A stretch of DNA of 64,000 nucleotides from positions 15,021-79,020 of the forward strand of contig CANEGO010000005.1 of the NCBI GenBank assembly GCA_947427095.1, read 5' to 3'. Numbering within the stretch: position 1 is the first letter of the stretch; each line of letters begins with the position of its first letter. A model generated the notes under the pieces. The model worked only from the letters and a program-made list of their open reading frames with translations, was not told where the DNA came from and did not search any database. Below are positions 14,738 to 49,608 of this stretch, piece by piece. This DNA is from an uncultured Clostridium sp. (GTDB lineage Bacteria > Bacillota_I > Bacilli_A > RF39 > UBA660). The position numbers were made by a program, and so were the translations under genes.

Positions 14738-15008
14738 CACTAAAACCTCCTTATAAATTAAAAAACAGCAAATCATCCCCATAGGGACGAATGCTGTTTG
14801 TATCCGTGGTACCACCCAGTTTATTATTCTTAAAGAATAATCACTTTATGAAATAATAACGGTTTTTCTTCCGTCTTAGCCTACTTTATAAATTTCGGTA
14901 AGATACTCCGAGGTGTTCTTTCTTTAAATTATCTTACTGATATTCCACCACCATCAGCTCTCTTTTAAGAATCATTTAAATACTTTTCCTCATCAACGTC
15001 TTTAAATA
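14738..15008 (-). ncRNA. T-box riboswitch leader, specifier codon probably AAC (Asn), with intrinsic terminator at 14761-14801
   Basis: Read on the minus strand: a K-turn (UGAUGAGG...CCUCGGAGUA), a specifier loop GAAAGAACA closed by CCUC, a distal loop GGUGGUGGAAU, the T-box sequence ACUGGGUGGUACCACGG, and a terminator ACAAACAGCAUUCGUCCCUAUGGGGAUGAUUUGCUGUUUUU. Confidence 0.75.
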
Positions 15009-15170: not shown

Positions 15171-15246
15171 TGGCGCTTCAAGTAGGACTCGAACCTACGA
15201 CCTGCCGGTTAACAGCCGGATGCTCTACCGACTGAGCTATTGAAGC
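15171..15246 (-). tRNA. tRNA-Asn (anticodon GUU)
   Basis: 76-nt cloverleaf GCUUCAAUAGCUCAG...CUGUUAA...GGUUCGAGUCCUACUUGAAGCGCCA. A TTGACA-17-TATAAT promoter lies at 15281-15309. Confidence 0.9.
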
Positions 15247-18287: not shown

Positions 18288-18364
<77 letters not shown>

Positions 18365-18377
18365 ATAAATATATAAG

Positions 18378-18470
18378 TGGCGGAGGAAGAGGGATTCGAA
18401 CCCCCGCGCCGGTTGCCCGACCTCCCGGTTTTCAAGACCGGTCCCTTCAACCAGACTTGGGTATTCCTCC
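18378..18470 (-). tRNA. tRNA-Ser (anticodon UGA), type II
   Basis: 93-nt tRNA GGAGGAAUACCCAAGUCUGG...CUUGAAAACC... with a long variable arm and CCA end. Confidence 0.9.
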
Positions 18471-19171
18471 GAATACATTAACTATTATATGCAAAAACAA
18501 AATGTATATAACAATTAAACAGCACTAAAATTATAGCATTCCATGTTTTATTTGTCAACACATAATTTAAAAACCATAAAAACAGGCACCTATTTTCGTG
18601 CCTGTTTATTGTAATCTAATTTGTTGGTCACTTGGTATACAAAAAAACTTTAGCATCCTTTAAACCAACCACATGATTTTCACCACCTATTCGAAAATTA
18701 TATATTAATGTTTAAAATTATTGTAATCTTTACTAAAAATTGGTTATTAACATCTTAAAAACTTATTTTTTACCAACTAAATAAGCAACACCTCACTTTC
18801 TATTTTAATTGTACCTTTAAAATATTAAATTATTGTGTTATTTTTATTAAAGTTTATAAAAAAAGAAACTATCTTTAGTTTCCTTAGCTATTGTGGTTAA
18901 CATGTACCATACAATACTTTGTTGATGGTAGTACTTTTTCGTTATCATCATGTACGTTTTATGCTATATCATGAGTATTTGAAACACTCATATCCTTGTC
19001 AATTGATATTTCAACATCTATATAATATATATTACCAAGCATCCACAAGTAAAGCACCAAAATCTATCTTTTTGGCGGCGCTCCTTGTATACCAGTACAT
19101 CGCTAAGATGTATAAATCACATACTTTATCGTGCTTTAAAATATTAACGTAATACCTTATGCAAAGTCAAT

Positions 19172-19462
19172 TTACTTTTTAGCTTCTTTTATCTTTATAT
19201 AATCAATTTGAGGGTTATATAAATTATCTGCAAAATGTAATATTTTTGGAGCTGTTTCTTGTATTTTTGTTACACCACCATTTATTATCATCACAATTTC
19301 ATGGTCATCTATTTGTTTAGTAACAATTCCTCTGGCATTATCTGGAAATAGACTTTTATTTGGAGCAATTAAACCAATATTATTTGGTAACATTTTGCTA
19401 ATAAAATTTGGTAACATACCATTATGTATATGACCAGCTAAAATCAAATTTATTAATTTCAT
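19172..19462 (-). pseudogene. Truncated metallophosphoesterase: C-terminal third only (GHIHNG motif near its N-terminus)
   Basis: 96-aa ORF carrying only the last calcineurin-like motifs. An in-frame stop lies 14 codons upstream, and there is no room for the N-terminal 2/3 before tRNA-Leu. Confidence 0.4.
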
Positions 19463-19608
19463 ATCATTTACAGAATTTAATACTTTTTCATTTAAAATGT
19501 TCTAAAACTTTCATGCGTACCACCTTCAAAAACGTTTTTGTTTTATAGTATAATACATTTTAAAGAAAATAAATAAAAAACTAACCTTTAAGGTTAGTTA
19601 TTTTTAAG

Positions 19609-19697
19609 TGGTGCCCGAGGCCGGACTTGAACCGGCACGAGGTATGAATCTCGCAGGATTTTAAGTCCTGTGCGTCTACCAATTCCGCCACTCGGGC
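19609..19697 (-). tRNA. tRNA-Leu (anticodon UAA), type II
   Basis: GCCCGAGUGGCGGAAUUGGUAGACGC...CUUAAAA...CGGGCACCA. Terminator at 19571-19600. Confidence 0.9.
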
Positions 19698-19699
19698 AA

Positions 19700-19774
19700 T
19701 GGTGTCCTGTATGCGACTCGAACGCATGACCCTTTGATTAAAAGTCAAATGCTCTACCTACTGAGCTAACAGGA
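19700..19774 (-). tRNA. tRNA-Lys (anticodon UUU)
   Basis: GUCCUGUUAGCUCAGUAGGUAGAGC...CUUUUAA...ACAGGACACCA. Confidence 0.9.
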
Positions 19775-19791
19775 CGTACTACTAAATAAAT

Positions 19792-19866
19792 TTGGTTGCC
19801 TCGGCAAGATTCGAACTTGCGCATGTCAGAGTCAAAGTCTGATGCCTTACCACTTGGCGACGAGGC
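19792..19866 (-). tRNA. tRNA-Gln (anticodon UUG)
   Basis: UGCCUCGUCGCCAAGUGGUAAGGC...CUUUGAC...CGAGGCAACCA. Confidence 0.9.
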
Positions 19867-19874
19867 AATCTAAA

Positions 19875-19959
19875 GTGGTGGGGAGAGGTGGATTCGAACC
19901 ACCGAACCCGAAGGAACAGATTTACAGTCTGCCGCGTTTAGCCACTTCGCTATCTCCCC
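19875..19959 (-). tRNA. tRNA-Tyr (anticodon GUA), type II
   Basis: GGGGAGAUAGCGAAGUGGCUAAACGC...CUGUAAA...CUCUCCCCACCA. Confidence 0.9.
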
Positions 19960-19964
19960 GTTTA

Positions 19965-20040
<76 letters not shown>

Positions 20041-20048
20041 AATAATAA

Positions 20049-20125
20049 ATGGTGGACGCTATAGGACTCGAACCTATGACCCCCTGCTTGTAAGGCAGGT
20101 GCTCTAACCAACTGAGCTAAGCATC
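20049..20125 (-). tRNA. tRNA-Val (anticodon UAC)
   Basis: GGAUGCUUAGCUCAGUUGGUUAGAGC...CUUACAA...UAGCGUCCACCA. First gene of the six-tRNA cluster. Confidence 0.9.
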
Positions 20126-20128
20126 CAA

Positions 20129-47280: not shown

Positions 47281-48054
47281 CTAGATTATTCCTGATAATA
47301 AAATATATCCAATAACAACAAAAATAATACTATCTAATCTATCTAACACGCCTCCATGCCCTGGCATTATATTAGAAAAATCTTTAATACTATGATTTCT
47401 TTTTACAGCGCTAAAGAACAAATCACCTAATTGTCCTAAAGAAGATAAGAATAGCGTTATAATCAAAAGCCCTAGAATATTGACTGTACCATCAACAAAA
47501 ATAAAGTAAAAAGTTGCTGCACAAAGGGTACCAAATATACCGCCGATTATGCTACCTTCCCAAGTTTTATTTGGTGAAATCTTAGGAGCTAATTTATGTT
47601 TTCCAATTAAAGTACCGCCTAAATGCGCATAAGTATCAGTAAGGGTAGTAATTAAAAATAAATAAATAAACTTCATTAATCCCTCATTTCTTATTAACGT
47701 AAATTGATGAAATATAGTTCCAACAAGAATCGTCATACCAATTAATTTAAAAGCATTATCGGCATTATACTTTTTATTGTCATTACAATATATAACCGCA
47801 AGCATTGGAAGTAATATCGTTAAGAAATAATAAGTTATACGATTTTTATCAATAAAAACAAGTAATATAACCAAAGCATATAAAATCATATCTACATACC
47901 TAGGTCTTCTTTCTTCTCCTGGTAAACTCAAAAACTCTTTCATACCTAATACTGCCAAAATAGTAGCAGCAACTTTAAACCACATACCACCTAGAATAAT
48001 AAGTGGAATAAATATAGCTAGAGCAACAATCGCACTAATTACTCTTTTCTTCAT
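47281..48054 (-). CDS. cdsA: Phosphatidate cytidylyltransferase
   Basis: 257-aa multi-TM protein with a CDS-family C-terminal signature. Confidence 0.85.
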   Translation of the reverse strand: MKKRVISAIVALAIFIPLIILGGMWFKVAATILAVLGMKEFLSLPGEERRPRYVDMILYALVILLVFIDKNRITYYFLTILLPMLAVIYCNDNKKYNADNAFKLIGMTILVGTIFHQFTLIRNEGLMKFIYLFLITTLTDTYAHLGGTLIGKHKLAPKISPNKTWEGSIIGGIFGTLCAATFYFIFVDGTVNILGLLIITLFLSSLGQLGDLFFSAVKRNHSIKDFSNIMPGHGGVLDRLDSIIFVVIGYILLSGII

Positions 48055-48165
48055 ATAATCACATCCTTATGTTCTTATTATAATACAATTAACATTTTTT
48101 AACAATTAAATTATTATTTGAGTTGATATGTTTACATAAATTAATTAATAATGTATAATTTAATT

Positions 48166-48252
48166 AGTGAGAGCACCTAACTTAAGGTTAGTAGCTTTCC
48201 TTAATATTACTTAAGGAAAAAGCGTACACCCCCTGGGTAAGTACGCTTTTTC
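48166..48252 (+). ncRNA. Candidate small RNA (~87 nt) with its own TTTACA-17-TGTATAAT promoter (48131-48159), two internal hairpins and a terminator; possible antitoxin of a type I TA pair
   Basis: Promoter hexamers read directly. Hairpins CUAACuuaagGUUAG and UUCCUUAAuauuacUUAAGGAA, then GCGUACaccccugggUAGUACGCUUUUUCUUUU. Confidence 0.3.
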
Positions 48253-48254
48253 TT

Positions 48255-48335
48255 TTACATTTTAAAAATTAGTATGGCTAATAATAAAATTAAAAGGATA
48301 ATTATTACTTTAAGAAACTTAGTTTCTTTTTTCAT
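48255..48335 (-). CDS. 26-aa hydrophobic peptide MKKETKFLKVIIILLILLLAILIFKM; candidate type I toxin
   Basis: GGTGGTGA SD 5 nt before the ATG. A single TM helix with a charged N-terminus. Its 3' end shares the bidirectional terminator with the convergent sRNA. Confidence 0.3.
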   Translation of the reverse strand: MKKETKFLKVIIILLILLLAILIFKM

Positions 48336-48466
48336 AAATATCACCACCCTTCTATTATTCATAAAAAGATGGAAAGCTACTACCCATTATTAGGTTCTCT
48401 CATCTTTATTGTTAGACAAAACTTTTTAAAACCCTCAAAAAATATAAAAAGAAGCCTTTAAGCTTC

Positions 48467-48715
48467 TTAATATGAGTCAATATTAATATTCACCCTTTTG
48501 TTATCATTTATGTATGAACTTGCTTGAACTATTGTTCTAAGTGCTTTTGCCATCTTTCCTTCTTTACCAATTACTCTTCCCATTTCACTTTCGGGAACCA
48601 TAACTTGGATAATAATTTCATCTTCGTTCTCGCTTGGAAACTCTTTTACCGTAATAGATTCTGGATCGCTTACAAGTTCTTTTACGATTAACGTTGTTAA
48701 TTCTACTAACTTCAT
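48467..48715 (-). CDS. KH-domain RNA-binding protein (YlqC-like)
   Basis: 82 aa with a GRVIGKEGKMAKALR KH motif. Confidence 0.8.
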   Translation of the reverse strand: MKLVELTTLIVKELVSDPESITVKEFPSENEDEIIIQVMVPESEMGRVIGKEGKMAKALRTIVQASSYINDNKRVNINIDSY

Positions 48716-49089: not shown

Positions 49090-49608
49090 CTAAATAAAAT
49101 CCTCTTTAACTTCTTCTTCAATTGCTTTTTCTACCGTTTCTTCATCATCGTCTATTGTATCCCATGGTTCCTCTTCTTCTAGGGTTGCTATTTTTACCTT
49201 TTCATCGTTAACAACTTCTATACCCAATTCTTTTTCAATATCAAACTCTATTACATCATCTTTTACATTGACATTACTACAGCTTGGCTGTTTAAGTGCC
49301 CTGACAATTATATCGCTTCCAGAAAGTGAAGTTCCCGCCTTTGTTTTAACATTAACGCTTTCACTATATGATATACGTTTGCTAGCAACAGCGGTTTTTT
49401 TGTCATCATCGTATGAATACCATATGTTAATATCGAAATTTCCATCAATAATTACTTTATCACCACTTACGGTACCTTTAAACTCATGATTAATTACCCA
49501 ACAACCTAATATTGTATTAGCATTATTTTCTGCTAAAAGATTATAACTATTTTTAAAATACTTTTTACCTTTTCCTATAACCGCTTTGGTAACTATTTCT
49601 TTAAACAT
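49090..49608 (-). CDS. cotE: Outer spore coat morphogenetic protein CotE-like
   Basis: EIVTKAVIGKGKK, ILGCWVINH, DINIWYSY and LKQPSC motifs track B. subtilis CotE (from memory). Acidic C-terminus. A CATAgatTA sigma-K-like -10 lies upstream. Confidence 0.7.
   Translation of the reverse strand: MFKEIVTKAVIGKGKKYFKNSYNLLAENNANTILGCWVINHEFKGTVSGDKVIIDGNFDINIWYSYDDDKKTAVASKRISYSESVNVKTKAGTSLSGSDIIVRALKQPSCSNVNVKDDVIEFDIEKELGIEVVNDEKVKIATLEEEEPWDTIDDDEETVEKAIEEEVKEDFI

Follow-up and report, generated by a model that had tools for sequence, protein, structure and literature searches.

A candidate multi-copy type I toxin–antitoxin-like cassette located between core genes in uncultured Bacilli

The stretch of DNA analyzed here (the window; 64,000 nt of contig CANEGO010000005.1, from an uncultured Clostridium sp.) contains a gap of 412 nt (48055–48466) flanked on one side by cdsA (47281–48054, minus strand) and on the other by a KH/KhpA-like gene (48467–48715, minus strand). 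A first-pass annotation had proposed that this gap holds a candidate type I toxin–antitoxin (TA) module, in which the gene for a short hydrophobic peptide converges with the gene for a small RNA (sRNA) and the two transcripts overlap at a terminator common to both. On the minus strand the order of elements is the KH terminator, an upstream region (48446–48403), a 5' hairpin (SL1'), a hairpin that encloses the Shine–Dalgarno (SD) sequence, the SD itself, the open reading frame (ORF) MKKETKFLKVIIILLILLLAILIFKM and a terminator (48251–48217); on the plus strand a promoter (48131–48159) is followed by an RNA of ~90 nt that finishes in the same terminator as the peptide mRNA. The peptide ORF thus does lie between two terminators, as had been claimed, although the stem of the KH terminator is found at 48449–48468 (minus strand) and not at 48430–48462. 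Promoter-like sites are frequent in the region (11, vs. 4.6 ± 2.0 in shuffles). The features of the two units, with their state in the related copies described below (loci are designated by L numbers), are as follows.

48131 to 48159, plus strand: sRNA promoter, TTTACA-17-TATAAT, an 11/12 match.
About 48166 to 48256, plus strand: predicted antisense sRNA of ~90 nt, putative antitoxin (covariance model R1, 109 bits, E 3e-19).
48169 to 48199, plus strand: SL1, the 5' hairpin of the sRNA, GAGAGC-ACCUAACUUAAGGUUAG-UAGCUUUC, near-invariant across copies.
48199 to 48216, plus strand: SL2 hairpin, CCUUAA-UAUUAC-UUAAGG, with double-sided compensatory changes at 4/6 pairs and a variable loop.
48217 to 48251, both strands: bidirectional intrinsic terminator, AAAAAGCGTAC-N13-GTACGCTTTTT, the core of a ~43-nt overlap (about 48214–48256).
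48255 to 48335 including the stop codon, minus strand: 26-codon ORF MKKETKFLKVIIILLILLLAILIFKM from the ORF listing, putative membrane toxin, intact at 25–26 codons in 13/15 copies.
48340 to 48353, minus strand: SD sequence AGAAGGGTGGTGAT (AGAAGGGUGGUGAU), 8 nt before the ATG, conserved in 14/16 copies.
48344 to 48372, minus strand: SD-sequestering hairpin of 12 bp from folding, anti-SD CCAUCUUUUUAU paired with AUAGAAGGGUGG, in 14/16 copies.
48371 to 48402, minus strand: SL1', the 5' hairpin of the toxin mRNA, UGAGAGAACCUAAUAAUGGGUAGUAGCUUUCC, a same-sense homologue of SL1 that is conserved and more variable than SL1.
48403 to 48446, minus strand: upstream region of the toxin unit, TTTTgAGGGtTTTAAAAAGTTtTGTCTAACAAT, conserved between paralogs that occupy unrelated sites; a predicted weak promoter in which a −10-like box is present but a good −35 is not.

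A motif scan of 185,579 species genomes finds this arrangement at 15 places in 5 metagenome-assembled genomes (MAGs), with up to 6 per genome: three uncultured Bacilli carry 6, 3 and 2 copies, a 'Clostridium sp.' carries 3, and a probably mis-binned Muribaculaceae MAG carries 1. Each complete match is a full cassette of ~310 bp comprising the upstream region (consensus TTTTAGGGGGATTTTAAAAGTTATGG...TATAAT), SL1', the SD hairpin, the ORF, the terminator, SL2, SL1 and the TTTACA-N15-TGTATAAT promoter. Covariance model R1 detects exactly one sRNA per cassette, with no other match elsewhere in these loci or in the rest of the window, which holds no second copy. By an independent route, a protein search seeded with the 42-residue extended ORF from L024 retrieved four called peptides (P0001–P0004), and the loci of all of these have a convergent R1 sRNA (87–106 bits) that ends at the stop codon. 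The retention of peptide ORF, SD, sRNA, promoters and terminator together in 15 copies supports and considerably strengthens the original proposal of a type I TA module, for which a search for paralogs and conservation of the peptide ORF in relatives had been suggested as checks; the ORF is conserved in the 15 complete paralogous or orthologous copies and in four further loci (three of them distinct). The pattern CTAACTTAAGGTTAGTANCTT has 0 matches in JGI metagenomes and 0 in IMG/VR, and blastn with the cassette returns none among PLSDB plasmids and, among GenBank phages, only AT-rich chance matches in Enterococcus phage terminase genes. Assembly breaks were considered as further evidence of repetition and rejected: Logan contigs do break inside the cassette, and the breaks on the cdsA side coincide with single-nucleotide or homopolymer variants. 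A recurrent Logan contig break at 48358, on the KH side, may reflect a paralog that shares a 30-mer.

The peptide ORF and its SD are found where they had been described (48335–48255 and 48353–48340, minus strand). As expected for a type I toxin, the product is small and hydrophobic, with 26 residues that include an uninterrupted run of 15 aliphatic or aromatic residues (V10–F24) and form a predicted transmembrane helix. The consensus across copies is MKKE(T/N)KFL(K/R)VIIILLILL(L/I)A(I/L)LIFKI, of 25–26 codons. Differences fall mostly at third codon positions and least at second (.17/.11/.22 for first, second and third), replacements are conservative (I/L/V/M, K/R), and the pN/pS (nonsynonymous to synonymous) ratio of 0.54, a sequence-level measure, shows selection on the peptide sequence itself. 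The ORF is broken in 2/15 copies, by a stop at codon 4 in L017 (808–900) and by a frameshift after ~10 codons in L029 (2847–2960), and the sRNA beside both is intact (108 and 87 bits, respectively), a pattern that gives the sole, indirect hint that the peptide may be toxic and be neutralized by the sRNA; the SD is lost in L021. Searches of the peptides against Pfam and NCBIfam give no toxin family at E<10, only noise (TMEM9, MacP, E 0.1 or worse); an exact look-up of the 35-aa ORF returns no record, and no paper among those searched contains the peptide sequence. Two other reading frames were considered and rejected: an upstream in-frame ATG (the 35-aa form) has no SD, sits in a hairpin loop and is not kept in frame in L020, L023 and L027, and an antisense ORF of 39 aa (48274–48393) has no SD and an ATG that is not conserved in the compared copies (L016, L021, L027). 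Immediately after the start codon the mRNA contains a further hairpin, AAGAAAC-UAA-GUUUCUU (48309–48325, minus strand; peptide codons 3–8), and the equivalent sequence (GAAA...UUUC) is by eye still pairable in most other copies despite amino-acid changes between them; this hairpin may add to translational silencing.

The sRNA promoter, near-consensus as claimed in the first-pass annotation, is the region's best; its −35 hexamer and TGTATAAT are kept in nearly all copies while the spacer varies, and since TG abuts TATAAT directly the promoter is not a canonical extended −10. The plus-strand RNA from 48166 to 48255 folds at −35.6 kcal/mol (z = −5.8), so that the earlier description of a structured transcript stands, with three hairpins instead of the two that had been counted. 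In the alignment of the 15 copies, 97.3% of cells are paired, and the covariation score is 0.129; shuffled alignments score 0.055 ± 0.008, and sliding the partners gives at most 0.035; the structure of the sRNA is therefore supported by covariation. The arms of SL2 occur as CCUUAA/UUAAGG, CCUUAG/CUAAGG, CCUAUU/AAUAGG, CCUUAU/AUAAGG and CCAUU/AAUGG. The terminator, unique in the window (0 expected by chance), has T-runs on both strands and serves both units, as had been proposed. An Rfam scan of the region at E up to 10 gives only sub-threshold matches driven by this terminator (ohsC 22.3/50, SR6 19.9/55 and OrzO-P 19.5/60 bits, score vs. gathering threshold), and a scan of the whole window at gathering thresholds reports nothing in the gap. 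Comparison with Logan contigs of the same species (L001–L015) shows metagenome variants at 48212, 48232–48236, 48258 and 48357, among them T/C in the SL2 loop, a C/G run in the terminator loop that ranges from 5 to 7, and a G to A change that converts Met26 to Ile (FKM to FKI).

The mRNA leader contains an element that had been missed. When the copies are folded one by one, the SD lies inside a hairpin in 14/16, with the 5' arm of the hairpin directly after SL1'. The two arms change together: relative to CCAUC/GGUGG, they read CCGUC/GGCGG in L027, CCUCU/AGAGG in L019 and L028, CCAAC/GUUGG in L030, and CC(G/A)AUC/GGUUGG in L024 and L031. The mean energy of anti-SD/SD duplexes is −10.4 kcal/mol for cognate and −7.3 kcal/mol for non-cognate combinations, and 0/5000 permutations are as low, a significance that is inflated by the relatedness of the copies. 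Per-copy folding and the cognate/non-cognate comparison replaced an analysis of the 5' untranslated regions (UTRs) with MAFFT and RNAalifold, in which the alignment was poor and only the outer SL1' stem was recovered. Upstream of the leader, a promoter scan of 48403–48446 (minus strand) finds only 9/12 sites. The same region and its equivalents in L016–L030 contain a paralog-conserved motif, TTTTAGGGGGATTTTAAAAGTTATGGCGAAGTATAAT, in which the −10 is good and no −35 is recognizable; it may be read by an alternative sigma factor or bound by a regulator.

An adjacent gene for a complementary sRNA is the other hallmark of a type I TA locus, and here the predicted RNA has a promoter, a terminator, covariation and an overlap of 43 nt with the mRNA. 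In a cofold of the full-length predicted RNAs, the 3'-end overlap that had been claimed appears as a duplex of 43 bp that spans the terminator (ΔΔG −35.6 kcal/mol); it reaches only the stop codon of the ORF, and it is the only robust complementarity between sRNA and mRNA. Pairing in trans between the 5' parts, of the par or SprA1AS kind, was considered and rejected, as the best duplex is a 'hairpin swap' between SL1 and SL1' that is not above shuffles and brings no net gain in free energy. There is thus neither a par-like DRa/DRb arrangement nor SprA1AS-like pairing with the ribosome-binding site (RBS).

These results are probably best explained by a chromosomal, multi-copy, type I TA-like cassette that belongs to a previously undescribed sequence family and has a familiar Gram-positive architecture. 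The basis for this reading is the anatomy of the cassette, its conservation as a unit, the coding constraint, the RNA covariation, the presence or absence of the cassette at an orthologous site (see below) and the thermodynamics of pairing; transcription, peptide toxicity, neutralization and the decay step are inferred. In the proposed mechanism, a weak promoter would give an mRNA of ~190 nt encoding the 26-residue single-helix membrane peptide, and this mRNA would be translationally silent from birth because the anti-SD, just downstream of the 5' terminal hairpin, pairs with the SD. A strong convergent promoter would give the ~90-nt three-hairpin sRNA, which ends in the same bidirectional terminator and therefore has perfect complementarity to the 3' end of the mRNA over ~43 nt. 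In the txpA/RatA, bsrG/SR4 and bsrE/SR5 systems of B. subtilis a 3'-end duplex leads to RNase III-dependent decay; by analogy, the 3' duplex formed here would be cleaved by RNase III, with 3'-to-5' decay of the peptide mRNA, and peptide synthesis would be kept off for as long as the sRNA is made. The best-supported form of control would thus have two layers, namely intrinsic silencing by the SD hairpin and 3'-end antisense pairing by an sRNA from a much stronger promoter, the decay step being argued from the B. subtilis systems.

Several observations weigh against a type I TA-like cassette. The 5' parts of the two RNAs show no significant complementarity in trans (cofold ΔΔG −0.1 kcal/mol; for duplexes of the sRNA body with the 5' UTR plus ORF, z is ~ −0.4, no better than shuffles). 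The overlap is short and consists entirely of a stable terminator hairpin, in which no U-turn motif was found, and it would pair slowly without a loop–loop nucleation site. In a simpler control, the probability that the SD is paired is 0.74, vs. 0.55 with the upstream sequence shuffled, only a modest difference. The cassettes lie in core regions and not on mobile elements, without matches in plasmids or phages. The peptide has no C-terminal cluster of charged or bulky residues, a feature that is frequent, though not universal, in type I toxins (PMC2887945); it ends in ...LIFKM or ...LIFKI, its charges are N-terminal (MKKETK), and no copy contains Trp, Pro, Gly or a charged tail. Finally, in a variant form of the cassette (L032, 500–680; L034, 215–395; also L033), SL1' and the SD hairpin are replaced by a promoter, TTTACT-17-TATAAT, and an AAGGAG SD; the ORF there encodes 35 residues (MKFVIDYDI plus the peptide), and the convergent sRNA is intact. 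A strongly toxic product is hard to reconcile with such a canonical promoter and SD and the absence of a silencing leader.

The main rival, in which the gene encodes a benign small membrane protein and is regulated by the antisense RNA and the SD hairpin, draws on some of these same points. The product would have a physiological role (e.g., modulating a membrane protein or the envelope), with the sRNA tuning its level. The missing charged tail, the placement of cassettes at conserved core-genome sites across species, the variant with canonical signals (which suggests that substantial expression is tolerated) and the selection on the peptide sequence are all in favor of this rival. It does not readily account for six or more near-identical copies in a small genome, each with a dedicated antisense RNA, for double silencing, by SD sequestration and by an sRNA promoter that is strong, convergent and opposed to a weak promoter of the mRNA, for disruption of some ORFs beside an intact sRNA, or for presence and absence of the cassette at an orthologous site; these four traits are characteristic of type I TA loci, and genes for small housekeeping proteins seldom show them. 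On this balance a benign protein is unlikely.

The TA reading leaves two features unexplained, the invariant SL1 and a same-sense motif at the 5' ends of both RNAs. The latter, also missed in the first-pass annotation, is ~33 nt long and opens both units (48168–48200, plus strand, TGAGAGCACCTAACTTAAGGTTAGTAGCTTTCC; 48402–48371, minus strand, TGAGAGAACCTAATAATGGGTAGTAGCTTTCC; 79% identical), so that both RNAs begin UGAGAGNACCUAA...GCUUUCC; neither half of the motif occurs elsewhere in the 64 kb, where ~0.3 would be expected if one mismatch is allowed. SL1, unlike SL2, the top of the terminator and the mRNA hairpin, which all vary, shows a single compensatory change (C–G to U–A, in L026), and nearly all copies have an identical inner stem-loop, CUAACUUAAGGUUAG, among them 6/7 of those found by other search keys. 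One way to accommodate these facts, which is compatible with a TA function, is an sRNA that acts mainly through SL1 and not through the 3' overlap, with SL1 either acting as a seed for other targets or binding (or serving as a decoy for) a factor, for instance an RNase or an RNA-binding protein, by which SL1' is recognized as well. The near-identity of the inner stem-loop amid variable neighbors and the common 5' opening speak for it; yet no complementary target was found in the mRNA, no orphan SL1 occurs outside cassettes among the 15 genome matches, no partner factor is known, and the apparent invariance of SL1 is inflated because the search pattern required SL1 for 11/15 copies. An SL1-centered mechanism is accordingly regarded as very unlikely.

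After the 5' motif, both RNAs continue with a CC...GG hairpin and then the palindromic terminator; the cassette is therefore a near-palindrome with the terminator at its center, and the sRNA resembles a toxin mRNA from which the coding part has been removed. This resemblance raises the quite unlikely scenario of a 'mirror-image' module, in which the toxin gene would have been duplicated in inverted orientation about its own terminator and one copy, now the antitoxin sRNA gene, would then have lost the ORF. In such a module the same-sense 5' hairpin of the two RNAs would be functional, as a site recognized by one common factor (e.g., an RNA-binding protein or a processing RNase), and control would be exerted partly by 5'-end competition or mimicry and not by antisense pairing alone. 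A hok-like fold-back of 5' and 3' ends in a read-through mRNA (48402 to 48166; closing helix of ~30 bp, −86 kcal/mol, z −10) was considered as a selected feature and rejected because SL1 is invariant while SL1' drifts (e.g., in L019, L021 and L028), so that complementarity is not maintained.

The cassettes occur between core genes at no fewer than seven (>=7) intergenic sites, several of which are common to different genomes:

KH–cdsA site: window, L019, L020, L024.
gltX-like synthetase/UvrD-like helicase site: L030, L031 (L018 and L023 on the helicase side only).
rpoC–tilS site: L026, L027, L028.
Beside a methyltransferase: L025, L032–L034.

At the first of these sites, relatives whose KH protein is 83–84% identical lack the cassette and have KH and cdsA separated by just 111 nt, the cdsA promoter region being the same (L038–L041:2750–2860); comparison with this empty junction places the window cassette at roughly 48137–48446. 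Among these relatives is a cluster to which one source gives the name 'Clostridium sp. CAG:594', and other KH homologues are labeled 'Tenericutes bacterium'. The TTTACA hexamer, the −35 box of the sRNA promoter, also adjoins the KH terminator at the empty site. The junction holds other material elsewhere: two genes of ~252 residues without a Pfam match in one relative lineage (L035–L037:2750–4620), and fragments of an insertion sequence (rve/HTH_21) in another relative (L042:2800–4150). Among L016–L030, mean cassette identity is 84% between paralogs of the same genome vs. 81% between orthologs at the same site in other genomes, which suggests gene conversion or turnover (concerted evolution).

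The same body of evidence could be read as a repeated intergenic element of the repetitive extragenic palindrome or miniature inverted-repeat transposable element (REP/MITE) kind, or as a portable 'terminator plus promoter' cassette, with terminal hairpins that act at the DNA level or as insulators and an ORF that is incidental. A near-palindrome with inverted terminal motifs of ~33 nt that are themselves hairpins, present in multiple intergenic copies of ~310 bp, with presence and absence at one site and paralogs of one genome more similar than orthologs, fits such an element. Against it, the length, frame and hydrophobic pattern of the ORF are kept in 13/15 copies with change mostly at third codon positions, SD and anti-SD co-vary, and promoter hexamers are conserved at the right distance from each motif while spacers drift; moreover, comparison with the empty site reveals no target-site duplication at the boundaries of the window cassette, and no transposase was seen beside the copies examined. 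A purely repetitive element is thus highly improbable, and a type I TA-like cassette remains the preferred interpretation.

Farther from the locus, the only matches in the window at Rfam gathering level are a T-box leader (148.6 bits) and nine tRNA genes in three groups (14780–15005, minus strand; 15174–15246; 18291–20126, minus strand). A CotE-family gene (49090–49608, minus strand) is situated immediately upstream of rpsP and the KH gene, and SpoIID lies near another cassette (L031).

Few type I TA families are known, with structural descriptors for 16 in T1TAdb (PMC8594479), and they are on record from a narrow range of taxa (PMC5367252); such systems are also almost invisible to standard annotation. 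Through the cassette, an uncultured lineage of gut Bacilli would contribute a further family, as a complete unit of RNA and peptide with defined boundaries, and covariance model R1 together with the peptide alignment can be used in annotating such MAGs. The same-sense 5' hairpin and the palindromic layout also raise the question of how antitoxin RNAs originate.

Among known systems, the first-pass annotation had likened the locus to txpA/ratA, bsrG/SR4 and fst/RNAII; this comparison holds for architecture and fails for the Fst/Ldr peptide signature, for par-like direct repeats and for an overlap that covers the ORF. In txpA/RatA, bsrG/SR4, bsrE/SR5 and yonT/SR6 of B. subtilis, as here, the antisense RNA is convergent with the toxin mRNA at its 3' end, a strong promoter drives the antitoxin and a weak one the toxin, and a 3'-end duplex followed by RNase III-dependent decay is presumed to be common to both. 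These B. subtilis loci reside on prophages or prophage remnants, whereas the cassettes lie between core genes. Their overlaps are also longer and include part of the ORF (PMC8594479), whereas that of the cassette consists of the terminator and stop codon only, and neither the RNA nor the peptide of the cassette has Rfam or Pfam similarity to txpA/RatA, BsrE-G-H or YonT. The Ibs/Sib and ShoB/OhsC systems of E. coli resemble the cassette in their peptides of 19–26 almost wholly aliphatic residues, and Ibs/Sib also in being multi-copy; they are, however, Gram-negative systems with another arrangement of the RNAs, Sib covering ibs completely and OhsC being divergent without any overlap (PMC8594479).

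More generally, a small hydrophobic toxin and an SD-sequestering stem-loop are published features of type I systems (PMC2887945, PMC8594479), and both are matched by the cassette. With par of E. faecalis pAD1 (fst RNA I/RNA II) and Firmicutes Fst/RNAII it shares convergent promoters that face each other across a bidirectional terminator, an antisense overlap that excludes the ORF (PMC8594479) and a toxin that is a single-helix peptide of ~30 residues. As in par, an intramolecular 5' stem-loop sequesters the SD (48372–48344 in the cassette) and the toxin mRNA is shielded at its very 5' end by a helix (SL1', 48402–48371) (PMC7472228, PMC8594479). The Fst/Ldr peptides are defined by a transmembrane helix, a conserved Trp, a highly charged C-terminus and a P/D/S/TXXXG motif (PMC7472228), of which the cassette peptide lacks the Trp, the charged tail and the motif. 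The cassette also lacks the DRa/DRb direct repeats that in par give complementarity over the toxin initiation region; its only direct repeat (15 nt, 87%; 48205–48219 and 48303–48317) involves the variable loop of SL2 and is not retained in other copies, and its other repeats are inverted in the DNA and therefore same-sense in the two RNAs, unlike those of par. SprA1/SprA1AS of S. aureus likewise consists of convergent genes whose short overlap at the 3' ends leaves out the ORF, and its toxin, PepA1, is a small membrane peptide (PMC8594479); it differs in that the non-overlapping 5' domain of SprA1AS pairs with the RBS, complementarity that the cassette does not have, and it shares no sequence similarity with the cassette. 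As the defining features of Fst/Ldr are absent and no Rfam, Pfam or NCBIfam family matches the cassette RNA or peptides, the cassette is filed as 3'-overlap type I TA-like, outside any named family, and its closest relatives in organization appear to be Fst/RNAII and SprA1/SprA1AS, in both of which the overlap excludes the ORF.

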